From: Eggerthellales bacterium UBA1419
Lineage (GTDB): Bacteria; Actinomycetota; Coriobacteriia; Coriobacteriales; UBA8131
Length of the DNA: 48,681 nucleotides
Reading direction: 5' to 3'
NCBI GenBank assembly: GCA_002305585.1
Contig: DBPN01000046.1
Location: forward strand, 32,014-80,694
Positions 25,126 to 46,388 of the stretch are shown here, piece after piece. A model generated the notes under the pieces. The model ran no database searches. It saw only the letters and a program-made list of their open reading frames with translations, and was not told the DNA's origin. The position numbers and the translations under genes were made by a program. The stretch's first letter is position 1. The number at the start of each line of letters is the position of its first letter.

Positions 25126-26247
25126 ATGACGATCAGTGGAAAAGCGCAATTAGGCAAGAAGACAAAGTTCTTGGTCCAAACCCTTACAACGTCTGACATC
25201 GCCATTATCGATCATGTGGATATCGACAGGGTGTCCGCAGAAGGTCTGGTTAGGAGCGGTGTGAAGGGTGTGGTAAATGCCGCTCAGTCGATCTCTGGGC
25301 GTTATCCGAATGTGGGACCGAAAATCCTTGTGGATGCTGGTATCGAATTGTTGGATAACGTGGGACCTGAGGTCTTCGAGGTTGTCAGCGATGGTGATAT
25401 TGTCAGTATCGTGGATAACGAGCTGGTTTGCAATAATCTGGTGATAGCCAGTGGCACGCTTCTGGATCGGACGCAGATCGAACTGAGGATGCAAGCCGCA
25501 GAGCGCATGCTCGATCAGCAGATGGAGAAATTCGTCCAGAATACCATCGAGTACCTGGAGCGGGAGAAAGTCAGCCTGATCTATGATCCCTGGGTTCCGC
25601 CCGTACGGACGCCGATTAGAGGACGGCAGGTATTGGTTGTGGTGCGTGGTTACGAATACCTTCAGGATTTAAGAACCCTGACGCCGTATATCCGTGAGAT
25701 CAAGCCGGTGTTGATAGGCGTCGATGGAGGGGCCGATGCCCTGCTCGAGGCGGGTTTCAAACCAGATATCATCATCGGCGATATGGACTCTGTGACAGAT
25801 GCAGCGCTGAAGTCGGGCGCCGAGGTCATCCCACACGCCTATGAGGACGGGACCTGTCCCTCGCAGACACGTTTGGAAAAGCTGGGCGTGATGGCTTCGC
25901 CATGGCGGCTTGCGGCAACCAGCGAGGATCTCGCGTTGCTTCTCGCTTGGGAGAAGAAGGCAGATCTGATAGTGGCCTTGGGTACTCATTCCAATCTTGT
26001 GGAATACCTGGACAAGGGAAGGGCAGGAATGGCATCATCCTTCCTGGTGCGGCTTAAAGTTGGTACCAAGCTCGTGGATGCCAAGGGTGTGAGCAAATTG
26101 TATCGAGCCTCAGCTCCGCCTCGACATATACTGCTGGTAGTTTTGGCTGCGTTCTTGGTGGTTGTCTCAGTGATTGCTATCTCAGAGCCGCTTCGCAATA
26201 TCTTCACCGTGATGTGGTTGAATATCCGAACACACCTCGGTTTGTGA
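25126..26247 (+). CDS. steA: SteA-like putative cytokinetic/cell-separation protein (thiamine-pyrophosphokinase-like domain plus C-terminal TM)
   Basis: The sequences DIAIIDHVDIDRVSAEGLV and GVDGGADALLEAGFKPDIIIGDMDS and a C-terminal TM helix fit the family. The position after recN matches other actinobacteria. Confidence 0.8.
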   Translation: MTISGKAQLGKKTKFLVQTLTTSDIAIIDHVDIDRVSAEGLVRSGVKGVVNAAQSISGRYPNVGPKILVDAGIELLDNVGPEVFEVVSDGDIVSIVDNELVCNNLVIASGTLLDRTQIELRMQAAERMLDQQMEKFVQNTIEYLEREKVSLIYDPWVPPVRTPIRGRQVLVVVRGYEYLQDLRTLTPYIREIKPVLIGVDGGADALLEAGFKPDIIIGDMDSVTDAALKSGAEVIPHAYEDGTCPSQTRLEKLGVMASPWRLAATSEDLALLLAWEKKADLIVALGTHSNLVEYLDKGRAGMASSFLVRLKVGTKLVDAKGVSKLYRASAPPRHILLVVLAAFLVVVSVIAISEPLRNIFTVMWLNIRTHLGL

Positions 26248-26329: not shown

Positions 26330-27625
26330 ATGTACAACCTCAGATACCATCTGGTGACGATCTGTTCGATTTTCCTGGCACTGGCCATAGGGTTGTTGCT
26401 TGGCGCTGCGATTGCCGGAAGCGATCTGGTGCGAGATACATCACAGGGTTTGGTTGATTCTCTCCTTGAGGAGTTCAACGATATAACCCAGGAGAATAAC
26501 GAGCTTACAAAACAGATAGAAGTCGAACGACCTTTGACGCAACAGCTGCTTGGTTATTGGCAGGATGGACAATTGGTTGATCGAACGGTTGTGGTTTTAA
26601 GCGGTGACTCGGCTTCTGATACCGAGCTCTCGCAGCAGACGAGCCAGATGATCTCAGACAGTGGCGGCGTGCCGGTGACCATAACGGTCAAGGTTCCGGA
26701 GTTCGGTCTTACAGATGCGACGATAACGGAATCGTTGCAGCAGGTTATACCTGTGGTTGATGGCGAACCTTATACCACGACGATTGGCAAGGCTCTGGTT
26801 GATGAATGGACCTACGATGGCCTGCTGGCCGCGGTAGCAACAGAGCAGAATGGTTCCTCTGCTGAAGGATCGACAGCCGACGAATCCAACGCGTCTGGAT
26901 CCACAACAAGCAGCTCCACGACAAACGGATCATCGACGAACGCATCATCTGTCCCAGACGTGGATACAGAGGAGCTGCCAACCATAACCAAGCGCCTAAT
27001 CCTCGGTTTCCCTCTCACGTCAAAACTGGTTGACTTGGATTGCATCACTATCACTGTGGATTATAAGAGCTTCATCGCAGCTAACAGCGATAAGATGACA
27101 ACAAGACAGAAGCAGACATGGACCGAAGCCGATGAAGACGGTCTGCCATACGCGGTAAACGGTCTGGTCAACCTGTTGACTGTTTCCAATGATGAGAACA
27201 GCGCCAGCATCGCCGACCCGGTTGGACTGCAGATTACGCGTTATATCGACAACCTTGGCACTGCTGGGGATCTGCCTGTCTATCAATGGAAGACAACGAC
27301 TGATGCCAACGCAATGGAAGGCGGCGATGATCAGTCATCTGCGGGGGAGGCAGCGACAGGGATACTCGATCAGATCGGCGATGGTGAAGTCACTGCTAGT
27401 GATGACGTTGACCCAACGACGTTAGGCCGCTATGCAGTGTTGGCGCAGGTGAAGGGGCGAGCGAACAGTTTCATCGATGCTGCGACTCAGATGGGTTTGT
27501 CCTGCGTCACCACTCTGGATGATGCTTCTGGTGAATACAGTCTAGTCGCATTGCTGTCCGGTGCACGCAAGGGTATCTACGGATCAGATAGACCAGCCGA
27601 CGCACATTTCCCGACTTTGCCCTAA
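26330..27625 (+). CDS. SteB / MctB-like 'copper transporter' family (DUF3186) membrane-anchored protein
   Basis: The N-terminus MYNLRYHLVTICSIFLALAIGLLLGAAI is the family's hallmark, and the gene sits directly after steA. It contains a Ser/Thr-rich low-complexity insert at 26849-26950. Confidence 0.7.
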   Translation: MYNLRYHLVTICSIFLALAIGLLLGAAIAGSDLVRDTSQGLVDSLLEEFNDITQENNELTKQIEVERPLTQQLLGYWQDGQLVDRTVVVLSGDSASDTELSQQTSQMISDSGGVPVTITVKVPEFGLTDATITESLQQVIPVVDGEPYTTTIGKALVDEWTYDGLLAAVATEQNGSSAEGSTADESNASGSTTSSSTTNGSSTNASSVPDVDTEELPTITKRLILGFPLTSKLVDLDCITITVDYKSFIAANSDKMTTRQKQTWTEADEDGLPYAVNGLVNLLTVSNDENSASIADPVGLQITRYIDNLGTAGDLPVYQWKTTTDANAMEGGDDQSSAGEAATGILDQIGDGEVTASDDVDPTTLGRYAVLAQVKGRANSFIDAATQMGLSCVTTLDDASGEYSLVALLSGARKGIYGSDRPADAHFPTLP

Positions 27626-27630
27626 TCGGG

Positions 27631-28353
27631 TCATCGTCCCGATCTGCCCAGATCCCTGATGGCTTTCTTGACATCCAGGAATTGTTTTCCTCTGTGGATG
27701 AAGCCGGCGAGATCCCTGCCGGTAGCTCGATGATGCATCTCAACGGGTACTTCAAGTACGGTGAAGCCACAGCGTAGTGCCCTGATGGTCATCGCCACTT
27801 CCACGCCGTAGCGATCAGCGAAGGGTCGAAGTTGCCTGAAGCACGACCAGGTTATCGCTCTCTGCCCGCTCAACGGAGCTTGGGCGTTATAACCGCCACC
27901 CAATCGCCTGATAGCCTCACGAGCGGTGTTCACAACCAGTCCGAAACCGGCTTTTTGCTGCGAAGCAGGGAATACCGCGACACTCATATCGGCCTGACCC
28001 AGCAGGACTGGCTCGAGCAGATCCGCTGCCGCTTTAGCGCTGCTGCCCACATCGGCATCTAAGAGCAACAGGATATCGCTTTCGCAAAGAGCCGGTCTTG
28101 AGGGTAGAGGCTGCTCCAGTGTCCGCGCAAGTAGCTCAAAGGCTGCTCCCTTCCCCCTGTTGCCTTTCCCGCTTATCACCATGGCATCAGCTTTGTCGGC
28201 TAATGCCGCTGTGTCGTCAGTCGAGCCGTCATCGATGACCAGCACCTCTGTCACATGGGGCAATGCCCTCGCCGTCAGCACCGTCTCGGTGATGGTCTCA
28301 GCTTCATTGTAGGCCGGTATGCAGACGAGCACCGCCACGTTATCGACCCCCAT
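27631..28353 (-). CDS. Soluble GT-A fold glycosyltransferase (family 2-like)
   Basis: The motifs VLVCIPAYNE, VIDDGSTDDT and LLLDAD (DxD) are present, and I see no TM segment. The start is ambiguous between GTG 28338 (GGGGG 8-10 nt upstream, immediately after the murJ stop), ATG 28353 (14-nt overlap) and ATG 28395 (56-nt overlap). Confidence 0.8.
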   Translation of the reverse strand: MGVDNVAVLVCIPAYNEAETITETVLTARALPHVTEVLVIDDGSTDDTAALADKADAMVISGKGNRGKGAAFELLARTLEQPLPSRPALCESDILLLLDADVGSSAKAAADLLEPVLLGQADMSVAVFPASQQKAGFGLVVNTAREAIRRLGGGYNAQAPLSGQRAITWSCFRQLRPFADRYGVEVAMTIRALRCGFTVLEVPVEMHHRATGRDLAGFIHRGKQFLDVKKAIRDLGRSGR

Positions 28354-31300
28354 TGGATCTATGCAGACGCCTACCGATCCGTGATAACAGGTCATTGAGT
28401 ACTCTGACTTCGGGAATCTTGAGCATCCGGCAGATCAGATAATAGATTCCAAGCCCGGCAGACCCGCAGACGATGATCACGATCAAAGAGACAGCTATGT
28501 TGTCGTTAAAACCGCTGCGCGCGAAAACCGTTGGGAATATGGCTGCAACAGCAGATGCCGCGAATATCTTGGCGCCATCCTTGAATATCGCCTCGAGTCC
28601 AAAGGAGCCGATCTGACCTTGCAACACGCGATTCATCACCAAAAACAGCAGACAGTAAGTGATGATGTCAGCGACTGGTATACCTATTAGTCCGATACCA
28701 TCCCAGAGCCCGAAGCCGGTAGTGAAGAAACCATAGAGCAACGCTTGGAAGACGCGTCCTACCGCATCGATCTTGATGAAGAGCTTCAGATCCCTCAGTG
28801 AGCTGAAGGCGCGATAGAGATACATGTAACCAGAATAGAAGGGCAGTGCGAAGCACCAGACACTGAGCACCTGCGCAACATTCATGACATCTTGATAGTT
28901 GAATTGACCGGCATGGTAGAGTCCTGCTAGCTGATGGGAGAGCGCGAAGAGCAGCAGGGCCATAGGTGTGATAAGGAAGATAGTCGTGCGCAAACCCCGG
29001 CTGACATTCGTCTTAAAACCCTGCCAGTCCTCCGCCGCCGAGGCCGCGCTCATCTCGGTGAACAGTGTAGTAGATAAGGCAACTCCTATCACTCCGTATG
29101 GCAGTTGGTACCAAAGCCAGGCGAAGCTGAGGGTGGAAGGGCCATTGTCAGCTACGGCAAGCGAGAATGAATTCATAAAAGCTACTACCAGTAGATTCAT
29201 GATGATGAAGATGGTTGCCGGCAGTGCTATCCGCACCGTCTCCCGTAAGGCAGGATCCTTGAGGTTAACCTTGAAACGCAGGGGGATATTAAGCTTGAGG
29301 AAGGCCGGAATCTGGATTACGAGCATGGCGACTACACCGAGCGTGGTGCCTACAGCCAGCCAGATCATCCCTGCAAGCAGGTTGACGCTGGAGATGAAGG
29401 GGAAGCCGAGAAAGGTGATGATCACCACGATATTATTGAATACCGGCGCAAGCGCCGACCAGAAGAAGATGCGATGGGCATTGAGTAGGCCGCTGAGAAT
29501 CGCGCCTACTCCATAGAACACCGCCTGTATGGCGAAGAAACGGAAGAAGAACACGGCGATCTCGATCTGCTCGGTCTGATCTTGGGTCATGAATGTCTGG
29601 GTCCAGATGACCTGAGGAGCGAATATCGTAGCCAGCAGGGAGACCGCGCCTAGTGTGATCAATGCGATACCCAACAGATTCGAAGCGTAATCGGCTGCCC
29701 CTTGTTTACCCCGTTTCTCACGCTGTGCTAGATACAGCGGCAGGAAAGCGGTGGTTAGCACGCCACCGGCAACGAGCTCGTAGAGCATATTGGGCAGGTT
29801 ATTGGAGATATAGTAGGCAGAGGAGAACAGCGTATTACCTAAAGCGAAGGCAAAGGCCATCGTGCGCAGGAAACCAGTGGCACGCGACAACAACGTCACC
29901 GTGGCAAATGTCGCGGTGGAGCGCCCTACAGAAGGCTGGGGATCGCCATCTGAGTTGTCCTCGACGGGAAAGTTTGTCTCTTCGATGAGCGGGACTACAT
30001 CCGTCAAATCGGTTGGCATCGTTATCGGCTTCACATCCTCTAATAGTACAGTATCCAGCGATTCCATCGGATCAACGCTGTTGGCGATCGAAGGATGGCC
30101 ATTTCTCCGGTCGTTTCTCTGCAGATCGCTGAGTGATAGATCGACGCTACCACGAAGCTCTTCGCGCAATCTCCAACTATGCAGATCGCAGATCAACCAG
30201 ACGAAACAGGACATCATGTAGATAAGGTAGACCGACGGGGTTAGTATGCCCGAATCCTCTATGAACAGTGTGATTGCAACGATGATCAGACCCGTGGTGA
30301 ACGCAGCTCTGAAGCCGACATTGCGCTGCCAGAACTGTTCATATGGCCCCGGTGCGGCCAATCTGAGGAAAGCCATCAGTGCCACCACGACCGCGATGAA
30401 GACCAATGCAGGCCATGGCGCATATGAGAGCGTAGTGTTCAACGAAACCTGCCAAGCTTCGAATACCATGTCATGCAACAGTACGGCTAGACCCTGTTTG
30501 GCAGAAGGTATTATCCAGCGCATGTGCGAGAGCGGGTTGTAGAGCAAATCAAGGTACAGAACACCAAGGGCCAGCAGTATGGGGATACCGATAGCCAGCA
30601 GTACCACGCGCAAGGTGACCGGTCGCTCGTTGATCAGCCACCAGATGTAGAAGGTTCCGGTTAATGCCCAGACAATCGGGCCAAAACTGGAACCGAACAT
30701 CGGCAGGCAACTGATGAGGAGCAGTGAAAATGAGACGAGTAGGAAGATCCAGCGTTTGAATGGAGCGATCAGGCGATGCGTGGGGAAACGATTGACAAGC
30801 AATCCGGATAACGTGAACCAGGCGCCATAGAGCATAGCCGCGGGTTCATTGCCCAGACCATCGAACCGCGAGCCCTCCAAGATATCGTAGGTGATGTAGC
30901 CTACATGTGTCCAGAGACCGCCGAGTAGTTGATCGATCACTACAACCAGGACAGTGAGTGCGAAGAGGAAGGTCAGCGAGTGTATCCAGCGGGTCTGCCT
31001 ACCTATCAACAAGGCGATGAGTACGATTGCTCCTGCCCATACGGCACAATCCAGCATTAGCAGAAGAGGATCGGATATGCTTGGCAGTGTGAGGTGCATA
31101 AGGAAGGTTGCAGGCGGATACGACAGGATGATGAGCCAGAGGATCCTGACCAGCGGAATGAGGAAGTCCAAGGTCTTTCGGTTGAGTTTGAAGTGCAGGA
31201 AGATCAGGAAGATCGAGATGACGAATGTGAAGAAAGTCAGGACGAGGAAGGCGATGTTGATGGCCGGCTTGGTAGATCGGAAGTCATCGCAGAGCGCTCT

Positions 31301-31969
31301 GTCCCTGATCAGAGTGGCAAGCCTGTCATCTGCAGCGTCATCTGTCGCATGGCTTGTGATCGTGGCTACACTGTAATCTGGTGAATCAGGTAGATAATTA
31401 ATGTGGCGGACGAGGGCAGATACATCCCGAGTGGTTACCAGACGCGGATGATCGGTGGTGTCGGAGCTGAGGTATCCCTCATAACCTTGGCCGTGGATGA
31501 TAATCGGCGAATAGGTCTGCGGTGCCCATTCGTTGCGGAAGTTCTTCGAGCCAGCCACGATAAGCAGACTCCTGGGATCCATGGTGTCCAAGAGATAGCC
31601 AACAGTTGCATCGTATTGCGCGAGCTTCAGGCTATAGGGCTGCAGATATGTGGTGACATAGGGATCCTTCTCCAGATCATCGATCACCCAGGCATTATTG
31701 GAGATCAGATTCCCTGACGCTGAATCCGCCACCAACTGGTAGAGGTATGGCGTAGACTCAACATTAATCTGGTCCCAGTATAAATAGGGGACATACAGCA
31801 AGATGATCGGTACTGGGTCATCAACCGGGAATAATTCCATGGCAGGTTGCTCAGCTGCCGGGGCATCATCCGATTCAAGAGCAAGCGCGGCTGGGCTTGC
31901 GGCAACTTGCGCCATGATCAGGCACAGGATAACCACGCGGAGCACGAAATGCTTGAGTCGCTTCATCAC
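28340..31969 (-). CDS. murJ: Lipid II flippase MurJ (MOP superfamily) fused to a ~680-aa N-terminal ectodomain plus 11-TM module of unknown function
   Basis: Residues ~682-1209 (nt 29926-28343) look like MurJ: LLSRATGFLRTMAFAFALG, LPNMLYELVAGGVLTTAFLPLY and 14 predicted TM segments. Residues 1-681 comprise a signal anchor, a ~205-aa ectodomain, ~11 TM helices and an acidic linker. Confidence 0.85.
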   Translation of the reverse strand: MMKRLKHFVLRVVILCLIMAQVAASPAALALESDDAPAAEQPAMELFPVDDPVPIILLYVPYLYWDQINVESTPYLYQLVADSASGNLISNNAWVIDDLEKDPYVTTYLQPYSLKLAQYDATVGYLLDTMDPRSLLIVAGSKNFRNEWAPQTYSPIIIHGQGYEGYLSSDTTDHPRLVTTRDVSALVRHINYLPDSPDYSVATITSHATDDAADDRLATLIRDRALCDDFRSTKPAINIAFLVLTFFTFVISIFLIFLHFKLNRKTLDFLIPLVRILWLIILSYPPATFLMHLTLPSISDPLLLMLDCAVWAGAIVLIALLIGRQTRWIHSLTFLFALTVLVVVIDQLLGGLWTHVGYITYDILEGSRFDGLGNEPAAMLYGAWFTLSGLLVNRFPTHRLIAPFKRWIFLLVSFSLLLISCLPMFGSSFGPIVWALTGTFYIWWLINERPVTLRVVLLAIGIPILLALGVLYLDLLYNPLSHMRWIIPSAKQGLAVLLHDMVFEAWQVSLNTTLSYAPWPALVFIAVVVALMAFLRLAAPGPYEQFWQRNVGFRAAFTTGLIIVAITLFIEDSGILTPSVYLIYMMSCFVWLICDLHSWRLREELRGSVDLSLSDLQRNDRRNGHPSIANSVDPMESLDTVLLEDVKPITMPTDLTDVVPLIEETNFPVEDNSDGDPQPSVGRSTATFATVTLLSRATGFLRTMAFAFALGNTLFSSAYYISNNLPNMLYELVAGGVLTTAFLPLYLAQREKRGKQGAADYASNLLGIALITLGAVSLLATIFAPQVIWTQTFMTQDQTEQIEIAVFFFRFFAIQAVFYGVGAILSGLLNAHRIFFWSALAPVFNNIVVIITFLGFPFISSVNLLAGMIWLAVGTTLGVVAMLVIQIPAFLKLNIPLRFKVNLKDPALRETVRIALPATIFIIMNLLVVAFMNSFSLAVADNGPSTLSFAWLWYQLPYGVIGVALSTTLFTEMSAASAAEDWQGFKTNVSRGLRTTIFLITPMALLLFALSHQLAGLYHAGQFNYQDVMNVAQVLSVWCFALPFYSGYMYLYRAFSSLRDLKLFIKIDAVGRVFQALLYGFFTTGFGLWDGIGLIGIPVADIITYCLLFLVMNRVLQGQIGSFGLEAIFKDGAKIFAASAVAAIFPTVFARSGFNDNIAVSLIVIIVCGSAGLGIYYLICRMLKIPEVRVLNDLLSRIGRRLHRSNGGR

Positions 31970-32202: not shown

Positions 32203-33219
32203 GTGATCAGCATCGTGTCGGCACTTGTGTTCTGTGTGGTTGTCCCCGTTGCGGTGATGACCATGTTAGCCCCCTCACTTCAAAGAACCTCACCCAGAGT
32301 CGCGAACTTCCGCGATGCTAAGGTCTATAGTGGTCTTGGCATCGTATGGTTTGTCTGGCTGGTCTTCTTTTGGGTGGGCGCGCATCTGCTGGGCGCCCTA
32401 CGCATCGCCCAACCGGCCTGGGTTAGCTATCTTGTGCCGCTGTTCCCCCTGATTGCCGGGTCGTGTGCCTTTGGGCTGTTCGATGATTGGGTAGGTAATC
32501 ATCAGGCGAAAGGTTTCAGTGGCCATCTTAAGGCCCTGTTCAAAGGCGAGTTGACCACTGGTGGATTGAAATTCATCGGTATCGGTTTCCTGAGCCTATT
32601 CACCGCGGTCTCCCTATACTGGAATGGTATCGGTTCGACTCTGCAGGTTGTTCTGGTTACCTGTGTAATAGCGCTTTCGGCCAATCTGATGAATCTCTTC
32701 GATCTCAGACCCGGAAGAGCCGGTAAGATGTATTTACTGGGATTGACAGTGGCGTTGGTGACGGTGGGGATCTCCTCATCGGTGAATCTGGGCGGATTCG
32801 ACCTCGCGGCTTTGGGGTTGGCTGCATTGGGACCGCTACTGGCAACTTGGCGCTTTGATATCGGCGAGCAGGGTATGCTCGGTGATGCCGGAGCGAACTC
32901 GATGGGTGCCTTCCTGGGTTACCTGTTCGCAACAGCGCTACCCCTATGGGCACTGGTCATCTTCACGATAGTGCTGTTCGCGGTGAATATGCTCAGCGAT
33001 AAGGTCTCCTTCTCGGCGCTTGTTGACCGCAGCAGTCTGCTCACGGCCTTCGACCAATGGGGACGGAGTGAGGCTGTGCCACAACAGATTGTCCCAAGTG
33101 CTGCCGAGCGGGAAAACAGAGATGAAATAGCTGATGGACAGATATCTGAAAACCATTCTATTGAACTTGGGGTAGAATCCCCTGATGGTATTGATGAAGA
33201 CAGGAACAATCGAGAGTAG
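32203..33219 (+). CDS. MraY/WecA-family (GT4, PF00953-like) polyprenyl-phosphate sugar-phosphate transferase, divergent
   Basis: The protein is polytopic, with FDDW, NLMNLFDLRPGRAG and MLGDAGANSMGAFLG motifs. The start is a GTG with AAAGGAAG upstream. The gene is divergent from murJ and ends 18 nt upstream of pyrG. Confidence 0.75.
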   Translation: MISIVSALVFCVVVPVAVMTMLAPSLQRTSPRVANFRDAKVYSGLGIVWFVWLVFFWVGAHLLGALRIAQPAWVSYLVPLFPLIAGSCAFGLFDDWVGNHQAKGFSGHLKALFKGELTTGGLKFIGIGFLSLFTAVSLYWNGIGSTLQVVLVTCVIALSANLMNLFDLRPGRAGKMYLLGLTVALVTVGISSSVNLGGFDLAALGLAALGPLLATWRFDIGEQGMLGDAGANSMGAFLGYLFATALPLWALVIFTIVLFAVNMLSDKVSFSALVDRSSLLTAFDQWGRSEAVPQQIVPSAAERENRDEIADGQISENHSIELGVESPDGIDEDRNNRE

Positions 33220-34857
<1,638 letters not shown>

Positions 34858-34969
34858 GACAGCAACGCCAGATAAACACCTCAACGGCGCACAGACTTAT
34901 CGAATTGGTTGCCCGACCACTACAGCAACAGGCTGGCAGCCGACTTGGATAGTAGAGAGGGAACACGTG

Positions 34970-36079
34970 ATGATCAATCCGCAAAGACTTCTGACGACCT
35001 TCCTGGATCTGGTGCGAATCGATAGTCCCAGCGGTCATGAGGCTGCTGTCGCGCACTATTGTTGTGAAGCGCTTGAGGCTGCAGGCTGTGCGGTTGCGAT
35101 TGATGATACCACTGCGACAACTGGTTCAGACACCGGCAATCTGATTGCTGAACTTACTGGTGAAGCAGCGGGAAAGCTGTATTTCTCGGCACATATGGAC
35201 ACAGTGAGCCCCGGCGAGGGTATCAAGCCGCTTGTTGAAGCTGGGATTATACGGGCATCCGGCGACACGATACTCGGCGCTGACGACAAGGTTGGCATCG
35301 CCGCGATCATCGAGATGGTACGCGTGTTGCGGGAGAACGAGCTGTCGCACCCAACAATAGGTATACTGTTCAGTGTTGGTGAGGAGAAGAACCTCCGCGG
35401 TGCCAACGCGATGGATGCCACCATGTTCCACGGAGAGCCCTGTTTCGTCCTTGATTCGGAGAATCAGCCGGGTGAAGTGGTGGTAGGAGCTCCGTATCAC
35501 AACTCTTTCATAGCGACGTTCAGGGGTAAGGCGGCACACGCTGGTGTCTGCCCGGAGAAAGGCATCTCTGCCATCGCACTTGCGGCCGCGGCGATCAACG
35601 CGATGCAACTTGGACGTCTGGACGAGGTGACAACCGCCAACATCGGCACGATAGCCGGCGGTAGCGCAGATAACATCGTAGCTGACAGCTGTGTGGTCAC
35701 CGGTGAGTTCCGTTCATTGCACGAACAGCGTCTCAACGAGGTTGGTGAGATGATCTCTGCTGCTATTGAGAGCGCTGTAACGGGAACAGCGGGTGGTGTC
35801 GATGTTATCTGGGAGAAAGGCTATCCGGGATTCCTATTAGATGAGAGTCATCCCGTGGTGCAATTAGCGTTGAAGGCGGCCGAGAGGATCGGTCTGCCCG
35901 CGCGAGTCGCGGTAACTGGAGGTGGGTCGGATACCAATGTCTTCTCGGATAAAGGCCTGCAAGCGGTGACTTTGGGTACCGGTATGAAGGAGATCCACGG
36001 TTTGGGTGAGTGCCTGGCGGTTGACGATCTTGAGTCGTTGACCCAGCTGATAATCCAGATCGTCTTAGATTATCGTTGA
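34970..36079 (+). CDS. M20/M25/M40 metallopeptidase, PepT-like
   Basis: The motifs LDLVRIDSPSGHE, AHMDTV, GADDKVGIAA and SVGEE are present. I prefer the start at ATG 34970 or GTG 34967, with GAGAGGGA upstream. The ORF-track start at 34754 lies inside pyrG. Confidence 0.8.
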   Translation: MINPQRLLTTFLDLVRIDSPSGHEAAVAHYCCEALEAAGCAVAIDDTTATTGSDTGNLIAELTGEAAGKLYFSAHMDTVSPGEGIKPLVEAGIIRASGDTILGADDKVGIAAIIEMVRVLRENELSHPTIGILFSVGEEKNLRGANAMDATMFHGEPCFVLDSENQPGEVVVGAPYHNSFIATFRGKAAHAGVCPEKGISAIALAAAAINAMQLGRLDEVTTANIGTIAGGSADNIVADSCVVTGEFRSLHEQRLNEVGEMISAAIESAVTGTAGGVDVIWEKGYPGFLLDESHPVVQLALKAAERIGLPARVAVTGGGSDTNVFSDKGLQAVTLGTGMKEIHGLGECLAVDDLESLTQLIIQIVLDYR

Positions 36080-38971: not shown

Positions 38972-39949
38972 ATGGGAAGCCGCGACTTGAAAACGGAATA
39001 TCGGCACATACCCGTCCTACTCCATGAGTGCAGGGAGAACCTGGCTCTGAAGGCAGGGGAGACCTATTGTGATTGCACATTGGGTGGAGCAGGACACGCG
39101 ATTGAACTGGCCCATGATATCGAACCCGGTGGGATGCTGATAGGCATCGATCAGGACGAGATGGCCCACAGGGCGGCAGCTGAACGCATGGAGGCAGAGA
39201 TGCCCGATGTGAGGTTCCTACCATTAAGGGGCAACTTCGCACAGCTCGATGAGCTGTTGCTTGCTGCGAAGATACCTGGAGTGGACGCCTTTCTTTTCGA
39301 CTTGGGAGTCAGTTCGCCGCAATTAGACATATCCTCAAGGGGTTTCTCCTACGCACAGGACGCCCCATTGGATATGCGGATGGATCCAGGCAAACAAAAC
39401 CTTACTGCAGCAGAGATCATCAATACCTCAACCGAAGCAGATCTCACCTGGATACTCCGCACATACGGCGAGGAGAAATGGGCTCCACGCATCGCCCAGT
39501 TCATCATCCGTCAGCGCCAGATCGCGCCGGTGACCACCACTACACAGCTTGTTGAGCTGATCAGGGCTGCGATTCCGCAGGGAGCCAGAAAGACTCGGGG
39601 GAACCCTGCGAAACGCACATTCCAGGCACTGAGGATCAAGGTCAACGCTGAGTTGGACGCTCTGGAATCGGGATTAGATGCGGCTATCCGCTGGTTGAAT
39701 CCTGGCGGGAGAATCGCGGTGATCAGCTATCACTCCTTAGAGGATCGGATAGTAAAGGAGAAGTTCGCACAGCTGGCAAAGGGGTGTGTATGTCCACCAG
39801 AGGCACCTTTCTGTGTCTGTGGGCATGAGCCGATACTCACTATTAAGACCAAGCGGCCTTTGGTTGCGGATGAAGAGGAGATCGAGAGAAATCCTCGCAG
39901 CAAGAGCGCAAAACTGAGAGTTGCCCAAAAGACAGATATCGCACGATGA
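38972..39949 (+). CDS. rsmH: 16S rRNA (cytosine1402-N4)-methyltransferase
   Basis: The motifs HIPVLLHE, DCTLGGAGH, DLGVSSPQLD and SYHSLEDR are present. Confidence 0.96.
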   Translation: MGSRDLKTEYRHIPVLLHECRENLALKAGETYCDCTLGGAGHAIELAHDIEPGGMLIGIDQDEMAHRAAAERMEAEMPDVRFLPLRGNFAQLDELLLAAKIPGVDAFLFDLGVSSPQLDISSRGFSYAQDAPLDMRMDPGKQNLTAAEIINTSTEADLTWILRTYGEEKWAPRIAQFIIRQRQIAPVTTTTQLVELIRAAIPQGARKTRGNPAKRTFQALRIKVNAELDALESGLDAAIRWLNPGGRIAVISYHSLEDRIVKEKFAQLAKGCVCPPEAPFCVCGHEPILTIKTKRPLVADEEEIERNPRSKSAKLRVAQKTDIAR

Positions 39950-39979
39950 AACAAAGCTTAAACGGAGCAGGAAACATAG

Positions 39980-40390
39980 ATGGCACAGGCAGCAAGGGCA
40001 TATAGGGGTCAATATCAAACCCAGTGGCAGGAGGCCCCTGACCGGTCTCCACGCTTTACCGTGGTGCCAGGGAAAGCTCGTGACGCCGCCAGTCAACAGG
40101 CACTTTCGCCTCAGGCGCTCTTCCTGTTCAAGATGGTTATAGCGATGGTTGTGTTCGTGTCGCTCGTGGCAGGACTGCGCGTCTGGATAACCACAGCAAC
40201 CATACAGCAACTCATCGATTCACAGAACATCACTCAGTCCATAACTGAAGCCCGTGCCGCAGGCATGGAGCTGGAGGTAAGGTACTCGGTACTGGCAAAT
40301 CCCAATCGTATACAGGAAGTCGCCTCAGAACAACTGGGGATGTCGCCTGCATCGCAGGTAGCCTACCTTGATGCCACTGTAGAAGAGTAA
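39980..40390 (+). CDS. ftsL: FtsL-like bitopic cell division protein
   Basis: The call rests on position between rsmH and ftsI, a single TM (LFLFKMVIAMVVFVSLVAGL) and a following helical region. It is based on context and architecture, not sequence motifs. Confidence 0.55.
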   Translation: MAQAARAYRGQYQTQWQEAPDRSPRFTVVPGKARDAASQQALSPQALFLFKMVIAMVVFVSLVAGLRVWITTATIQQLIDSQNITQSITEARAAGMELEVRYSVLANPNRIQEVASEQLGMSPASQVAYLDATVEE

Positions 40391-40396
40391 TCTGCC

Positions 40397-42214
40397 ATGA
40401 CCCGGCAGGAACCCCATAATCAAGCTGGCACAGCCAGGAAAAGGTCCAACCAGTCCTCATCAAGAACTGACGCTACTCAGGTTTCGAACAGGGACTGGTA
40501 TCTGCTGCTGATCTTCATCGGCTTGGCGCTGATCATCATCATTCGGCTCATCTATCTGCAGGTGATAGTGGCGCCAGAGTATCGCGAACAATCCGCAGCG
40601 CAGCGTACAAGCGAGATAACGGTATCAGCTCGACGTGGGACGATATACGATCGCAACGGTAATCCGCTTGCGACCAGCGTTGACGCGACTACCATCTATG
40701 CGAATCCCAATGAGGTTGAAGATCCAGAAGCCACGGCAACGCTCTTGGCAGAGATAGTTGGTGGCGAATACGAGACCTATTACTCACTTCTGACCCAGAA
40801 TAATACCTTCGTCTATATCCTGCGCAAAGGTGACATCGCGATTGCCGATGCGCTCAAGGCCAAAGAAGCCGAGCTCCAAGGTGAACTCGATGCAAAAGCA
40901 CAGGAGATCAGTCCCACCACCCAGCCCGAATCCAGTGATCTCTTCGGCATCCATTACCTGGATGATTCTCGTCGTGTATATCCCTATGGGCAGATCGGCG
41001 GACAGGTGATCGGCTATGTTGGACTCGATGACAAGGGCCTTTCCGGCTTGGAGCTGATGTATGACAGCATCCTGTCCGGCACCAGTGGTGAATTGATTGT
41101 CGAGCGGGGAAAGGACAATACTCCCTTGCCCGGGGGAGTGCAGAAATTGGTGTCAGCGATTGACGGCCAGGACATCATCGTCTCCATAGATATCGATCTG
41201 CAGCAATATGTCGAGTCCGAACTGGCGCGTGTGGGCAGTGAACGTGAAGCGGATAGTGGCAATGTGGTGGTATTGGACGGGAGTACCGGAGAGATCTATG
41301 CGACAGCATCTCTGCCACTGTATGACCTGAATAACATCGCCGCTGCCGAAGATGATGCCAGCGTGCTTAAGAGTATCTCTACAGCTTATGAGCCCGGCTC
41401 AACATTCAAGGCGGCTATTGCCGCAATCGCCCTGGAGCAGGGTCTGATGGATACCGAGGATGTGATATTCGTCCCGGAGAAACTCGAGATATACGATAAG
41501 ACCATCAAAGATGCCGTTGAACGATCCGATGAGGAGATGAGCCTGCGCACGATAATCGCCAGGTCATCGAATGTCGGTGTATCACTGATAGAACAGAAGC
41601 TCGGTGACGAGACATTCGCTACCTATCTGGAGAGCTTTGGTTTTGGCAAGCCCACGCATGTCGATTTTCCGGGCGAGTCGAGAGGTCGCCTTGCAGATTG
41701 GCAGGGCTGGGATCCTGTCACTGCGGCGAATATCGCCTTTGGCCAGGGTGTCGAGGTCAGCTCACTGCAAATGGCATCGTTCTACGGCGCGATCGAGAAT
41801 GGCGGCATCCTCAACCAACCGCACTTCCTCATCTCGCAGCCCCATTCTGATAGTCTGCCTACATTTGAGAGCGAGCGACTGTTCTCCACTCAGACTGCTG
41901 ATAAACTCACCAGTATGCTAACTTCGGTTGTAACGGACGGGACCGGTACATCTGCCGCCGTCGATGGCTACGGAGTAGCAGGAAAGACAGGTACTGCTCA
42001 AAAGACCACATCGGATGGCGGATATTCTGATTATGAGCACATAGTGTCCTTTGTCGGTTTCTTCACTAGCTCCAAGAGCTCGCTGGTATGTCTGACTTCG
42101 ATGGATAACCCTTTGGGGGCTTTGGGTAACGCTCCCACCGGGCCGTTGTTCTCATCGATCATGGATTTCGCTGCAAATCGTTACATGATCGCTCCCGATG
42201 AACCTATGGAATAA
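40397..42214 (+). CDS. ftsI: Class B penicillin-binding protein (FtsI-type transpeptidase)
   Basis: An N-terminal TM is followed by the transpeptidase triad STFK, SSN and KTGTAQ. The gene is in the dcw position. Confidence 0.9.
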   Translation: MTRQEPHNQAGTARKRSNQSSSRTDATQVSNRDWYLLLIFIGLALIIIIRLIYLQVIVAPEYREQSAAQRTSEITVSARRGTIYDRNGNPLATSVDATTIYANPNEVEDPEATATLLAEIVGGEYETYYSLLTQNNTFVYILRKGDIAIADALKAKEAELQGELDAKAQEISPTTQPESSDLFGIHYLDDSRRVYPYGQIGGQVIGYVGLDDKGLSGLELMYDSILSGTSGELIVERGKDNTPLPGGVQKLVSAIDGQDIIVSIDIDLQQYVESELARVGSEREADSGNVVVLDGSTGEIYATASLPLYDLNNIAAAEDDASVLKSISTAYEPGSTFKAAIAAIALEQGLMDTEDVIFVPEKLEIYDKTIKDAVERSDEEMSLRTIIARSSNVGVSLIEQKLGDETFATYLESFGFGKPTHVDFPGESRGRLADWQGWDPVTAANIAFGQGVEVSSLQMASFYGAIENGGILNQPHFLISQPHSDSLPTFESERLFSTQTADKLTSMLTSVVTDGTGTSAAVDGYGVAGKTGTAQKTTSDGGYSDYEHIVSFVGFFTSSKSSLVCLTSMDNPLGALGNAPTGPLFSSIMDFAANRYMIAPDEPME

Positions 42215-42302
42215 CTTGGTAATTAATCTGGTTGGCTATTTGCTTAAGGATCAATGATGCTATTCTCTGCTAGTTTGAGTAAAAGTGAGGATTTTGGAAT
42301 AT

Positions 42303-43916
42303 ATGGTCTCTAAATCACTGGGCGAGTTGCTCGCTACCATACCCTACAAACTGGTGGGTCCAGCGTCAGATAGACAAGACGTTGCAGCCGAGCAGGTAAG
42401 GGGAATCGCTTATCGCTCCAATTGCGTAGAGCCAGGAGATGCCTTCTTCTGTATCCCAGGGCTTGTGCACGATGGTCATGCTTTCGCTGCCGATGCGCTG
42501 AAACGCGGCGCCTCGTTGTTGGTCACTCAACGACCGCTTGACATCGATGCCACTCAGGTTCAAGTTGACGATACCCGCAAAGCATTGGCATTGGCATCGA
42601 GCGTGTTTTTCGAGCAGCCTTCATCGCAGTTGCAGCTATTGGCCGTCACGGGGACCAACGGCAAGACCACCACCACCTTTCTCGTTGATTGGATCATCCG
42701 TTTCGCCCTTTCTGTCTCAGGTGATGAGAATGCAGAGGATAGAACCGGATTGATTGGTACAGTCGAGACCCGTATTGGCCGAACCAGATTGGACTCACAC
42801 CACACCACGCCGGAAAGCTATGACCTGCAGCAATTGCTGCGCCGAATGCTGGATAGCGGCATTGGATTCGTCACCATGGAGGCTTCGAGCCATGCCATCG
42901 CGCTGGATCGGGTAGCGGGCGTCCACTTCGCTGTCGCCGCATTCACGAACCTTACACAGGATCATCTCGATTTCCATGCCGATATGCAGGAATACTTTGA
43001 GGTCAAGGCGCGGCTGTTCACTTCCGAACTTACGCGCGAACGGGTAATCAACATCGATTCTGAATATGGTCGTGAACTTGTTCGCCGATGTAGTGCCAGT
43101 GGTTATCAGGTGTTGACAACTGGCTTTGCCGAAGAGGCGGATATCAGGGTTTTGCGCTCATACTGCACAGTGCACGGAACCCAGCTGATGATAGCGACTC
43201 CAGAGGGTGAACTGGAACTCAGCTATCCGTTAATCGGAGCATTCAACGTCGAGAATGTCCTGCTCGCGACGGGGATTGCACACATATCAGGTATCGACTA
43301 TGCGACGATTGCCGCCGCCTTGGCACAGGCGCCACAGGTTCCGGGTAGATTGGAGTCGGTGCAATGTCAAAGTGAGATCGCTGACAGCGATACAGTGAAA
43401 AGCAACTCACTTCTTCCACGGGTCTTCGTCGACTATGCCCATACTCCCGACTCTATTGAGAAAGCCCTAGCCGCCATTAACGCCATCAAGACCGCGCGCG
43501 TGGGGATAGTGTTCGGTTGCGGCGGTGACCGCGATCGCGGAAAGCGGCCATTGATGGCGCAGGCCGCCCGCGCAGCTGACTTCGTCATCGTGACCAGTGA
43601 TAATCCACGTTCTGAGCAGCCTCAGGCGATCATCGCTGATATACTTCCCGGTTTGGCGGGCTACACTGCGTATTGCGTTGAGCCAGATAGACGAAAGGCT
43701 ATCGCCTGTGCTTTGCAGAGTGCAGGGCGAGACGACATCATCCTCATCGCTGGCAAGGGTCATGAGGATTATCAGTTGGTTGGTGATAAAGTGTTGGATT
43801 TCGATGACCGTTTGGTCGCAGCAGAGGAACTTGAAGCCCTGTTCTCGCGGCAGCACAATAGCGGATATGAAAATAATGACAACGAGGTTGATAGGATAAA
43901 GGAGTGTGAGTCCTGA
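42303..43916 (+). CDS. murE: UDP-MurNAc-L-Ala-D-Glu--2,6-diaminopimelate ligase
   Basis: The P-loop GTNGKTTT is present, and the DNPR motif (codons 43599-43610) is associated with meso-DAP specificity. I prefer the ATG at 42303, with GAGGA 11 nt upstream. The ORF-track GTG at 42285 is the alternative. Confidence 0.9.
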   Translation: MVSKSLGELLATIPYKLVGPASDRQDVAAEQVRGIAYRSNCVEPGDAFFCIPGLVHDGHAFAADALKRGASLLVTQRPLDIDATQVQVDDTRKALALASSVFFEQPSSQLQLLAVTGTNGKTTTTFLVDWIIRFALSVSGDENAEDRTGLIGTVETRIGRTRLDSHHTTPESYDLQQLLRRMLDSGIGFVTMEASSHAIALDRVAGVHFAVAAFTNLTQDHLDFHADMQEYFEVKARLFTSELTRERVINIDSEYGRELVRRCSASGYQVLTTGFAEEADIRVLRSYCTVHGTQLMIATPEGELELSYPLIGAFNVENVLLATGIAHISGIDYATIAAALAQAPQVPGRLESVQCQSEIADSDTVKSNSLLPRVFVDYAHTPDSIEKALAAINAIKTARVGIVFGCGGDRDRGKRPLMAQAARAADFVIVTSDNPRSEQPQAIIADILPGLAGYTAYCVEPDRRKAIACALQSAGRDDIILIAGKGHEDYQLVGDKVLDFDDRLVAAEELEALFSRQHNSGYENNDNEVDRIKECES

Positions 43917-45343
43917 TGCGTCTTGAACTGCAGCAGATCATCGATTTCACTGCCGCAGCAGTAGAGGTAGAGGCTGTTGACCCCCAGGTGATCATAAACG
44001 ATTTCTCTTGGGACTCACGTGAGGTCACACCGGGTTCGTTGTTCATCGCCTTACCAGGAGAGCGTGTGGATGGCAATGACTTCATCCAGTCGGCTATCGC
44101 AGCCCAAGCCGCGGTTGTCATCGCCACACGTCCGGTGACAGCAGACGAGCATGAGTTAGCGCAAGAGTACGGGACGGCATTGCTTGTAGTTCCCGATGGG
44201 ATAGAGGCACTTTCTGCTTTGGCGGCAGGCTATCGCGGCTTGCTGTTTGCTCAGGTGGTGGGTGTAACCGGCTCCAGTGGAAAGACCACCACGAAAGATC
44301 TGATAGCCACTGTCTTGTCACAGGGTCTCGCTGTGGTATCGACATCCGGCAACCACAACAACGAATATGGCGTGCCCCACACCGTGCTTTGCGCCAATCC
44401 ATCCACACAGGCACTGATCGTCGAGATGGCGATGCGCGGAGCTGGACAGATAGAGGCGCTTTGCGCCATAACCCGTCCGCGTATCGGTGTGATAAGTAAC
44501 ATCGGTGTCGCGCATCTGGAGTTGCTGGGCAGCAAGGAGAATATCGCCCGTGCTAAAGCCGAGCTCATCACGGCATTGCCCAACGATGAGGGTGTCGCTG
44601 TATTGAATGGTGATGATCCGCTCACACCACTGATCCGCGATTCGGCTGAGACTACGCGTAGGGGAGTGAGGGTGTTGCTCTTTGGTCTGGGTGAGCAAAA
44701 CGATATCAGGGCAACGGATATACGCTACAATGATCAGGGTCAGCCCAGCTTCATGCTGTTGATGGAAGGCAGAGAGCCGATTTCCGTCCAGCTCTCACTC
44801 CAGGGTGAGCATAACATCTACAATGCCCTGGCCGCCGCAGCAGTAGGGATGGCAATGGGTATCACAAGCGATGCGATCGCGCATGCTCTGGCTCTGGCCA
44901 AGGGAGCAGCCATGCGTCAGGAAACGGTAATCGCCAACAATGGCACGAGGATAATCAACGATGCCTATAATGCCAATCCAGATTCGATGCGAGCTGCTTT
45001 ACGGTTGCTGGGCAGATTGCCCGGCAACAGGAAGCGCATCGCGGTCTTGGGCGATATGGCGGAGCTTGGTGAGGGCGAATTAGAGTGCCATCGTCAAGTG
45101 GGTGATCAGGTTCCCGCCAATGGTGTCGATATATTGATCACTGTTGGGCACAGGGCAGTGGCGATAGCCGACGGAGCTGTGCAGGCTGGGATGGACAGGG
45201 AAGCGACCATCATCTGCAGGGATGTGGATGAGGCGATAACCGCATTGGAGCCGTACTTGGAGAATCAGCCGATCATCCTGGTGAAGGGATCGCGCTGCAT
45301 GGGCTTGGAGCACGTAGTGGAAGGGGTCGTTGAGCTTTGTTAG
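43916..45343 (+). CDS. murF: UDP-MurNAc-tripeptide--D-alanyl-D-alanine ligase
   Basis: The motifs GSSGKTTTKD and DAYNANPDSM are present, and the ATG overlaps the murE TGA. Confidence 0.93.
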   Translation: MRLELQQIIDFTAAAVEVEAVDPQVIINDFSWDSREVTPGSLFIALPGERVDGNDFIQSAIAAQAAVVIATRPVTADEHELAQEYGTALLVVPDGIEALSALAAGYRGLLFAQVVGVTGSSGKTTTKDLIATVLSQGLAVVSTSGNHNNEYGVPHTVLCANPSTQALIVEMAMRGAGQIEALCAITRPRIGVISNIGVAHLELLGSKENIARAKAELITALPNDEGVAVLNGDDPLTPLIRDSAETTRRGVRVLLFGLGEQNDIRATDIRYNDQGQPSFMLLMEGREPISVQLSLQGEHNIYNALAAAAVGMAMGITSDAIAHALALAKGAAMRQETVIANNGTRIINDAYNANPDSMRAALRLLGRLPGNRKRIAVLGDMAELGEGELECHRQVGDQVPANGVDILITVGHRAVAIADGAVQAGMDREATIICRDVDEAITALEPYLENQPIILVKGSRCMGLEHVVEGVVELC

Positions 45344-46386
45344 GATTGCAGGCATATCCGACCTTCCAGGTCTTCCTTTCCATCTTCATCTCCATGGCCT
45401 TGACTATGATCCTGTTACCGATGTGGATTCGCCTGCTCAAGGTGCGGCAGATCGGTCAACAGATTCGTGCCGATGGTCCCCAGCGTCACAAGGTCAAGCA
45501 GGGTACGCCGACGATGGGTGGCGTCATCATCCTGATAGCGGTACTGGTGACCGTGGCGCTACTTGGACGCACTGCCCCAATCTCGGACATACTGCCTTTA
45601 CTGTTGGTATCCATCGTTACCTTCCTCACAGGGCTGATGGGTTTAGTCGACGACCTCTCAAAGGTTGTCAAGGAACGTTCACTCGGCTTGAGGCCAAACG
45701 CCAAGATGGCCTGTCTGACGCTGATCTCGGTGTTCTTCTGCCTGGCTGCAGTCAACCTGGTCCATATCGAACCGGTGATCGATATCCCTTTCCTTGCGAC
45801 TATCGACTTGGGTGTATTCACTTCGGTTATCGACTTCGGAGACCTTCAACTTGAGATACCGTGGCTCTATCTGCTCTTTGTCTTCCTGTTGATGGCGGGA
45901 TTGTCTAATGCCGTCAACCTTACGGATGGATTGGACGGACTTGCCGGCGGCACTGTGATGATCGCTATGGTGGTGATGGCTGCGATCGCCTACCGCGATG
46001 ACCAGCTCAACCTCGCTTTGTTCGCAGCGGCAGTAACGGGGGCCTGCGTCGGTTTCCTTTGGTTCAACGCCCATCCGGCGGGGATCTTCATGGGAGACAC
46101 CGGCTCTTTGGCCTTGGGCGCGGCGTTTGCGGCACTGGCAGTGCTGACCAAGACCGAGGTGGTGTCACTGGTTGTTGGCGGCATCTTTGTGATGGAGGCG
46201 CTTAGCGTTATCATCCAGGTGGCATATTTCAAACTCACCGGCAAACGGGTATTCCTCATGGCACCGTTCCATCATCACTTCGAGCAGAAAGGCTGGTCAG
46301 AGACCAAAGTGGTCATCCGCTTCTGGATTATCACCGCCTTACTGGCCTGCATCGGTTTCGCCTTGTTCTTCAGTCAGAGCGTTTAG
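45337..46386 (+). CDS. mraY: Phospho-N-acetylmuramoyl-pentapeptide transferase
   Basis: The motifs KQGTPTMGG, NAVNLTDGLDGLAGG (45907-45951), GDTGSLALG and PFHHHFE are present. The TTG start overlaps murF by 7 nt. The alternative ATG at 45394 would truncate TM1. Confidence 0.95.
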   Translation: MLGLQAYPTFQVFLSIFISMALTMILLPMWIRLLKVRQIGQQIRADGPQRHKVKQGTPTMGGVIILIAVLVTVALLGRTAPISDILPLLLVSIVTFLTGLMGLVDDLSKVVKERSLGLRPNAKMACLTLISVFFCLAAVNLVHIEPVIDIPFLATIDLGVFTSVIDFGDLQLEIPWLYLLFVFLLMAGLSNAVNLTDGLDGLAGGTVMIAMVVMAAIAYRDDQLNLALFAAAVTGACVGFLWFNAHPAGIFMGDTGSLALGAAFAALAVLTKTEVVSLVVGGIFVMEALSVIIQVAYFKLTGKRVFLMAPFHHHFEQKGWSETKVVIRFWIITALLACIGFALFFSQSV

Positions 46387-46388
46387 GA

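Follow-up and report, generated by a model that had tools for sequence, protein, structure and literature searches.

The 48,681-nucleotide (nt) stretch analysed here (hereinafter referred to as the window), from contig DBPN01000046.1 of the Coriobacteriia genome Eggerthellales bacterium UBA1419, contains a gene in which the flippase MurJ is fused to a large N-terminal module, designated X. The fusion gene (28340..31969, minus strand) encodes 1209 amino acids (aa) plus a stop codon in a single uninterrupted open reading frame (ORF). It lies in a cassette with genes for a glycosyltransferase of family 2 (GT2) and for a membrane protein resembling MraY/WecA-type polyprenyl-phosphate sugar-phosphate transferases (PNPT-like). 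The X-MurJ fusion and its partners point to an undescribed four-gene envelope sugar pathway. We tentatively read the protein as a MurJ-type flippase joined to an outer-face module, X, that would process the flipped lipid-linked glycan, and our confidence in this reading comes close to even without reaching it.

The ORF list gives GTG as the start codon, with ATG as the very next codon. In the Pfam scan of the 1209-aa protein, PF03023 (MurJ) alone was matched, at aa 707-1149 (232.4 bits; cutoff 27.4). In the NCBIfam scan, TIGR01695 alone was matched, at aa 682-1190 and profile positions 3-503 of 506, and its equivalog cutoff of 235.55 bits was passed by a narrow margin (243.3 bits). The N-terminal hydrophobic segment (aa 8-30; 31880..31948; all segments on the minus strand), with a hydropathy peak at aa 12-30 (H=2.23), a 7-residue K/R-rich tail before it and an A-L-A motif ahead of LESDD, is predicted to be a signal peptide or signal anchor. 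It is followed by a reduced, degenerate ectodomain of the alkaline-phosphatase (AP) superfamily, delimited by alignment to stand-alone relatives (aa 31-232; 31274..31879), and by an 11-helix membrane domain of unmatched fold, delimited by modelled helices and invariant columns (aa 233-598; 30176..31273). Predicted local distance difference test scores (pLDDT) and charge counts mark an acidic, disordered cytoplasmic linker (aa 599-681; 29927..30175), and matches to PF03023, TIGR01695 and the PDB define the MurJ (MVF/MOP) flippase domain (aa 682-1209; 28343..29926).

The layout of an AlphaFold2 model of aa 1-681 (pLDDT 78, predicted TM-score [pTM] 0.77) agrees with the hydropathy profile. The linker holds 18 D+E against 7 K+R, and its pLDDT is <50 from aa 613. 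The inside loops after transmembrane (TM) helices TM1, TM3, TM5, TM7 and TM9 contain 3, 2, 1, 1 and 1 K+R, respectively, the N-terminal tail contains 3, and the short outside loops of X contain 0-2 each. This distribution obeys the positive-inside rule and thus places the linker in the cytoplasm, the side needed for the N-terminus of MurJ. The initial annotation, made from the letters and an ORF list, had described one 1209-aa ORF with MurJ at residues ~682-1209 only, had set segment boundaries that proved right to within a few residues by hydropathy and the model, and had proposed the same cytoplasmic linker; the family scans and the positive-inside rule agree with it on these points.

That the ORF is one real gene was confirmed from related genomes. 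Three other assemblies encode a 1208-aa fused protein with 99.5-99.7% identity, in which the linker is open and carries substitutions, and in an 83%-identical orthologue the only linker differences are two deletions, of 16 and 11 codons, that preserve the frame. A locus scan (one genome per species, a narrower alignment as query) yielded 17 related loci, all from uncultured Coriobacteriia, which together with L003 form the tally given here. X was fused to MurJ in 10 loci (L003, L004, L005, L007, L008, L009, L010, L011, L016, and L017). In L014, X and MurJ are separate genes in different frames, and a candidate MurJ start overlaps the X stop, a sequence arrangement that suggests translational coupling; the split is likely an intermediate stage, either before fusion or after fission. 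GT2 directly follows X, and MurJ is absent, in three loci (L012, L013, and L015). X forms the C-terminal end of a 1238-aa open frame in L019, the upstream part of which was unmatched by the cassette queries, and the remaining three loci (L006, L018, and L020) are interrupted by contig ends.

An assembly or annotation artefact, in which a frameshift or a lost stop codon had joined neighbouring X and murJ genes, could draw on the different frames at L014, but it is effectively refuted, with hardly any probability left to it, since the open linker is common to four near-identical, non-identical assemblies, the 10 other species-level loci keep the frame at differing linker lengths, and the stop/start overlap at L014 fits two coupled genes and thus a real alternative state, with no sign of error in the window. 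The claim of a genuine fusion in the initial annotation therefore stands, with the three near-identical assemblies and 10 further Coriobacteriia loci fused alike. At L014 (2955-3021; a metagenome-assembled genome [MAG] of Coriobacteriia, UBA8131), the candidate MurJ would have a basic N-terminal extension of ~90 aa. A promoter and terminator scan of the fusion locus found sites no more numerous than in shuffled sequence. At NCBI, the fused proteins are named plain MurJ and stand-alone X is named "hypothetical protein".

The MurJ domain matched E. coli MurJ structures in the PDB at E 1e-24, and only MurJ entries were matched, with no Wzx or TacF among them; on these matches, the C-terminal domain is assigned to the MurJ type, not to the Wzx/TacF type. 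In E. coli, R18, R24, and R270 make up the cationic triad of the central cavity. Equivalents of R18 and R24 are kept in the window protein, and the columns of R52 and R270 hold Y and L, respectively. All 15 cassette MurJs compared have Y/F at the R52 column and L/T at the R270 column. In Staphylococcus aureus MurJ, the cationic triad comes from non-aligned positions (preprint 10.64898/2026.06.21.733627), so the residues at the aligned R52 and R270 columns do not tell a Lipid II flippase from another flippase.

For aa 1-681, no match was found in Pfam or NCBIfam, nor among PDB chain sequences at E ≤ 1. The module had been left unplaced by the initial annotation, and it is indeed absent from every curated family scanned. 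The same annotation had asked whether a well-characterised family is routinely fused to MurJ; no such family was encountered, as family X is itself uncharacterised. The three parts of the protein nevertheless differ in this respect: the MurJ domain falls within the MurJ family and the ectodomain, though degenerate, within the AP superfamily, both known kinds, whereas the membrane domain matches none.

The ectodomain of the window protein aligns with the first and last strands of a ~370-aa ectodomain in stand-alone relatives, and ~200 residues are missing. Since the missing residues include the catalytic core, the ectodomain of the window is no working AP-type enzyme. A model of a full-size relative (P0005; pLDDT 86, pTM 0.84) gave 40 Foldseek matches in the PDB at E ≤ 1e-3, covering the ectodomain only. 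All matches listed belong to the AP superfamily and include arylsulfatase A (E 1.3e-5, probability 1.00), YejM/PbgA (TM-score to target about 0.5), nucleotide pyrophosphatases/phosphodiesterases (NPPs), and alkaline phosphatase. With the window model, no Foldseek match in the PDB was found at E ≤ 0.001, and YejM/PbgA was the sole AP hint (E 0.48, probability 0.75). A profile of 50 relatives searched against PDB sequences had top matches that were all of the AP superfamily, although weak. Pfam scans of the same 50 relatives gave weak SGSH_C matches in 19, with Sulfatase, Phosphodiest, or Metalloenzyme in others; the Sulfatase matches, in 4 of the 50, were also weak. Judged from the models, the ectodomain of family X is predicted to have the AP alpha/beta fold, and the shortened ectodomain of the window belongs to the superfamily because it is homologous to the full-size domain.

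The catalytic positions of this fold are poorly kept. The strand-1 metal-ligand Asp is present in 12 of the 50 stand-alone relatives, 32 of which have Pro instead, and S/T occupies the nucleophile position in 32 of 50, without being invariant there. The window protein has V-P-Y at the end of strand 1 and has lost the nucleophile region by deletion. The invariant polar residues of full-size ectodomains are N175, D177, R189, D252, D255, R258, and D283 (P0005 numbering). From two short stretches, the initial annotation had gained a weak impression of an AP-superfamily ectodomain with substituted metal-ligand positions. In the alignment with full-size relatives, the two stretches fall on the opening strand and the final strands of the ectodomain, and the impression is upheld by the structural matches of P0005 and by the metal-ligand and nucleophile positions, which are not kept in relatives. 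The ectodomain that it described is, however, a remnant of the stand-alone form.

In the membrane domain of family X, R368, G371, G373, N374, P423, G426, H482, and D572 are invariant, and D474 and S573 are nearly so. By alignment columns and the positive-inside rule, all of these residues lie at outside loops or at the outer ends of helices. No Pfam or NCBIfam family was found for this domain in the 50 relatives (Pfam to E 10), no PDB sequence was matched by their profile, and neither the window model nor the P0005 model gave a Foldseek match to it in the PDB. The membrane matches of the window model were noise, consisting of ATP-binding cassette (ABC) transporters, G-protein-coupled receptors, and designed repeat proteins with a probability ≤0.2. 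A search with hhalign found no internal repeat or pseudo-symmetry.

Known folds for outer-face enzymes were tried as candidates. For a GT-C fold, the best Foldseek match of the window model was AglB (7e9s) at E 2.1 and probability 0.09; no GT-C structure stood among the best 50 listed matches of P0005, and no GT-C Pfam family recurred in the 50 X members, DUF6056 being matched once (E 1.3). Wzy_C or O-antigen ligase was rejected, with no Pfam match in X or the 50 relatives at E ≤ 10, and no WaaL or SEDS structure was present among the listed Foldseek matches of the window and P0005 models. PigN (PF04987) was rejected likewise, with no match in the 50 relatives at E ≤ 10 and catalytic residues that are not conserved. 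The membrane domain thus belongs to none of the families tried, namely GT-C, Wzy/WaaL, and PigN.

A word-indexed search with X found a handful of relatives only. When 1.84 billion cluster representatives were searched with a full profile, 6251 relatives, counted as clusters at 50% identity, scored E ≤ 1e-3, and 3031 of them E ≤ 1e-30. Most relatives are stand-alone proteins of ~750 aa, with an ectodomain ~200 residues longer than that of the window. Domain mapping of 164 family members gave X alone in 128, GT2-X in 11, X-X in 9, X-MurJ in 8, X-GT2-X in 6, and one each of MurJ-X-GT2-X (2394 aa) and GT2-X-PNPT-like. All eight X-MurJ proteins, the window protein included, fall within the window's own Coriobacteriia-type group, and GT2 is fused to X in 19 of the 164 proteins. 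Each cassette partner (MurJ, GT2, and PNPT-like) is therefore fused to X somewhere. As predicted from the sequences, all of these fusions would be topologically possible, with GT2 and the linkers in the cytoplasm.

The giant fusions came from metagenomes: P0024 (2394 aa) is of the type MurJ-X-GT2-X, P0019, P0021, P0023, P0026, and P0028 (~1760-1790 aa) of the type X-GT2-X, and P0061 (1243 aa) of the type GT2-X-PNPT-like. The giant fusions with two X copies indicate that many genomes have two X paralogues flanking GT2. Tandem X-X proteins of ~1530-1545 aa, annotated as "hypothetical protein", were found in cultured Micrococcales, such as Sediminivirga luteola (P0047; WP_188549965.1) and Actinotalea sp. 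M2MS4P-6 (P0090; WP_263578459.1). The X proteins of L012, L013, and L015, which have no adjacent MurJ, carry a long low-complexity charged C-tail, e.g., KADRVSKTDKASKAERASN repeats in L012. In Bacillota MAGs, a GT1 gene overlaps X: at L021/L022 (2819-6093), from anaerobic digesters, a distant 721-aa X is overlapped by a GT-B gene (Glycos_transf_1), not GT2, with no MurJ nearby and a LysM/Hydrolase_2 wall hydrolase gene in the vicinity. At L025, X is followed by a 998-aa GT2-containing protein, and at some loci X stands alone outside the cassette.

The GT2 gene (27631..28395, minus strand; PF00535 at E 2.1e-16), encoding a small soluble GT-A enzyme, shares 14-56 nt, according to which start is taken, with the 3' end of the fusion gene, and GT2 adjoins X or MurJ in all cassettes. 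Its best NCBIfam matches were AglJ (2.9e-23), GpgS, and PpgS (3.1e-10), all far below cutoffs, and its nearest solved structures were GpgS (3.8e-7) and ArnC (2e-4). The third cassette gene of the window (32203..33219, plus strand), transcribed divergently from the fusion gene, encodes a 338-aa membrane protein that has no Pfam match of its own and whose profile finds nothing in the PDB. Its homologues (E 1e-98) have precomputed PF00953 matches, and several are named GlcNAc-1-P transferase by the Joint Genome Institute; the orthologue in L002 covers positions 3-158 of the 160-position PF00953 profile at E 0.005. In hhalign, the NxxNxxD and GDxG motifs of the 338-aa protein are in register with the MraY of the window (E 0.002, probability 13%), and the residues of the cytoplasmic DD, NxxNxxD, and GDxG motifs (D94, D95, N161, N164, D167, G227, D228, and G230) are invariant in 10 orthologues. 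The protein is best described as a putative, divergent MraY/WecA-type polyprenyl-phosphate sugar-phosphate transferase.

The cassette is flanked upstream by steA (25126..26247, plus strand; NF040608 SteA, 468 bits) and a MctB/SteB-like gene (26330..27625, plus strand; PF11382 MctB), and downstream by the CTP synthase gene pyrG (33238..34857, plus strand), which served as synteny anchors. The pyrG ORF is 67-96% identical to ORFs with CTP_synth_N and GATase in L001, L003, and L023 and to the matching ORFs of the other loci. In L001 (a complete 2.5-Mb genome), L002, and L023, steA-mctB and pyrG enclose all four cassette genes; at the P0006 locus, with steA-mctB upstream, at least GT2, MurJ, and X are present, the last product being cut. 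X and MurJ are separate genes at these four loci, which belong to actinobacteria other than Coriobacteriia. In gene order, then, X, MurJ, GT2, and the PNPT-like gene form a conserved four-gene unit between steAB and pyrG. The fusion is genuine, as initially annotated, but it is no one-off capture, because X is a regular operon neighbour of MurJ in several actinobacterial lineages. In the window, the cassette is preceded by alaS, mltG, aro genes, dxs, tlyA, ppnK, recN, steA, and the MctB/SteB-like gene, and followed by pyrG, genes for an M20 peptidase and DUF3866, xerD, and the start of the division and cell wall (dcw) cluster with a transpeptidase penicillin-binding protein (PBP; likely ftsI).

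Two observations were made on genes next to the cassette. The MctB/SteB-like protein of the window has 431 aa, against 280-309 aa in orthologous loci; Pfam MctB is matched at aa 1-180, and the additional residues, which follow this match, form a low-complexity stretch rich in Ser, Thr, and Asn (…SSAEGSTADESNASGSTTSSSTTNGSSTNASS…). As speculation, this exported S/T-rich stretch beside a glycan cassette might be a glycosylation target. In the fused locus L003 (11805-12881), a gene of the DUF218 (SanA/ElyC-like) family, which is linked to envelope and carrier-lipid physiology, was found after GT2.

By strong guilt by association, the fusion pattern suggests that the four proteins act as a unit on polyprenyl-phosphate-linked sugars. 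The analysis shows that the fusion exists, what its domains are, how they lie in the membrane, that the cassette is conserved, and that its members are fused in many combinations. We infer in which order the steps occur, what kind of glycan is made, and how X acts chemically, as follows. The PNPT-like enzyme would load a sugar-phosphate onto polyprenyl phosphate, GT2 would extend the resulting polyprenyl-diphosphate-linked sugar, and the MurJ domain would flip the polyprenyl-diphosphate-glycan. The membrane domain of X would then take the glycan at the outer leaflet for transfer, polymerisation, or other processing, and the fusion would hold flippase and processing module in 1:1 contact. A bolder proposal, which we consider rather doubtful, is that the membrane domain of X represents an unrecognised outer-face enzyme class for polyprenyl-diphosphate-linked glycans, which would comprise a polymerase, ligase, or transferase without relationship to GT-C, Wzy/WaaL, and SEDS.

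Several observations weigh against an outer-face processing module coupled to glycan export. In Pfam and Foldseek, the membrane domain resembled no known ligase, polymerase, or transferase, whether GT-C, WaaL/Wzy, or SEDS. The conserved polar site of the ectodomain (N175-D283 in P0005 numbering) is deleted in the window lineage, so that it is either dispensable or its function has shifted. The three Coriobacteriia loci in which X is followed by GT2 with no MurJ indicate that X can function where no MurJ is next to it. With dcw ~7 kb away, the cassette is part of a core stretch of housekeeping genes, a position that fits a housekeeping Lipid II flippase equally well. The nearest structures of GT2 include GpgS, which acts on a soluble acceptor.

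In one alternative, X is a non-catalytic regulator or scaffold of the PbgA/YejM kind, and the cell has no Lipid II flippase besides the cassette MurJ. X would then sense an outer-leaflet lipid or wall intermediate, or localise or gate MurJ, by a logic like that of the mycobacterial MviN pseudokinase extension. Such a role would be in accordance with the AP fold of the ectodomain, nearest to YejM/PbgA in size and shape, with its unconserved catalytic positions and further decay in the window lineage, with a core-genome locus beside steAB and near the dcw cluster, and with a MurJ domain scoring above the TIGR01695 equivalog cutoff. However, X is most often fused to GT2, not to MurJ, there is no MurJ in the neighbourhood of many X genes, and the strictly invariant outer-face R/N/D/H/D cluster would suit catalysis or substrate binding better than sensing. 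A regulator also leaves the PNPT-like and GT2 partners unexplained, and we regard this alternative as unlikely.

Less likely again is a three-component glycosylation system, in which GT2 would make a polyprenyl-monophosphate sugar and X, as an extracytoplasmic GT-C-like transferase, would take it as donor for decorating peptidoglycan, Lipid II, or a different wall polymer emerging from MurJ. The size of GT2 (~230-254 aa) fits polyprenyl-phosphate glycosyl synthases, its best matches include a dolichyl-P hexose transferase and ArnC besides AglJ and PpgS, GT2-X is the most frequent fusion, and the conserved residues of X face outward. These matches are far below family cutoffs, though, and GpgS scores as well; X has no GT-C fold signal, AglB being matched as poorly as stated above, and the scheme has no role for the PNPT-like enzyme.

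The least probable of the functional alternatives is carrier-lipid recycling. Here X would dephosphorylate polyprenyl diphosphate outside or return polyprenyl phosphate to the inner leaflet, feeding the PNPT-like and GT2 consumers and closing the cycle that MurJ opens. All three fusion partners of X handle polyprenyl-phosphate-linked species, its ectodomain is descended from phosphatase/pyrophosphatase-type enzymes, and the outer-face Arg/His/Asp cluster is suited to phosphate binding. Nevertheless, the AP-like catalytic residues are unconserved and their core is deleted in the window, neither Foldseek nor Pfam showed X to resemble BacA/UppP, PAP2, DedA, or DUF368, and no transporter-type internal repeat was found.

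Among known systems, mycobacterial MviN/MurJ (Rv3910) reportedly carries a C-terminal pseudokinase and an extracellular domain (Gee et al. 2012). Like it, the window protein is an actinobacterial MurJ with a large extension made of a degenerate, non-catalytic enzyme fold and an extracytoplasmic part. Unlike that of MviN, the extension in the window is N-terminal, unrelated in sequence, mostly membrane-embedded (11 helices), and derived from a gene family of its own, members of which are also found unfused or joined to GT2. PbgA/YejM (PDB 6vat, 6v8q, and 6xlp), the best-shaped structural match, likewise combines a polytopic membrane domain with a degenerate AP-superfamily ectodomain, but in reversed order (five TM helices, then the ectodomain), and the membrane domains are unrelated. 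PbgA, unlike X, functions in lipopolysaccharide homeostasis of diderms.

In phospho-alcohol transferases of the LtaS/EptA/OpgB/BcsG type, the TM part comes first and the Thr/Ser nucleophile and metal ligands are kept. They resemble X in having an AP-superfamily ectodomain on a membrane domain, and act on lipid-linked head groups outside, whereas in X the canonical residues are unconserved and the core is deleted in the window. The glycosylphosphatidylinositol (GPI) ethanolamine-phosphate transferases (PIG-N/Mcd4, PIG-O, and PIG-G) consist of an anchor, an AP-superfamily domain, and then ~10-14 TM helices. X shares this domain order only, having no PF04987 match and not keeping the catalytic residues.

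Wzx/Wzy- and TacF-type pathways comprise a PNPT initiator, glycosyltransferases, a MOP flippase, and an outer-face polymerase or ligase, and in parts list and logic they match the mechanism proposed here for the cassette. In contrast to Wzx/Wzy pathways, the flippase is MurJ-type, X is without Wzy, WaaL, or O-antigen-ligase signal, and the locus has one glycosyltransferase only, with no gene for a chain-length regulator or LCP protein. A precedent from comparative genomics is provided by the VanZ (lipocone) domains, small membrane domains acting on lipid head groups, for which fusion to, or operon linkage with, flippases of the MviN/MATE clan and MraY/WecA-type PNPT enzymes is predicted (Burroughs et al. 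2025, PMC12419801). X, in contrast, has no VanZ match in Pfam, is far larger, and carries an AP-like ectodomain. Literature searches for an X-MurJ fusion or the cassette found no description of either.

Elsewhere in the window, the M20 peptidase ORF (34754-36079, plus strand) has a TTG start, encodes 441 aa, and overlaps the end of pyrG by ~100 nt. Translation is more likely to begin at an ATG near 34970 (MINPQRLL…), which would shorten the product to 369 aa, as in the L001 orthologue. About 7 kb from the cassette begins the dcw cluster (38972-47840, plus strand), in which Pfam identifies MraW and a transpeptidase PBP. The later ORFs have the sizes of murE, murF, mraY (45337-46386), and murD, and the ORF at 45337-46386 is the one used as the window MraY in hhalign; should it be MraY, the window would hold a further member of that superfamily in the 338-aa PNPT-like protein. 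A 233-aa ORF (2253-2954, plus strand) between genes for an MgsA-like ATPase and an AI-2E transporter had no Pfam match at E ≤ 1e-5.

MurJ carries out an essential step of wall synthesis and is a drug target, and to our knowledge little is known about the recipient of its cargo. The X-MurJ gene ties MurJ covalently to a large membrane family (>6000 clusters at 50% identity) that is undescribed in databases, and it offers an entry point either to a new envelope glycan pathway or to a new coupling or control of Lipid II export. Cultured carriers of X exist and are usable for genetics. If the membrane domain of X is indeed a new outer-face enzyme class, flipping and transfer would occur in one polypeptide in Coriobacteriia, and the product of the cassette would be an envelope glycoconjugate, so far undescribed, that is widely conserved in Actinobacteria and occurs in some Bacillota.

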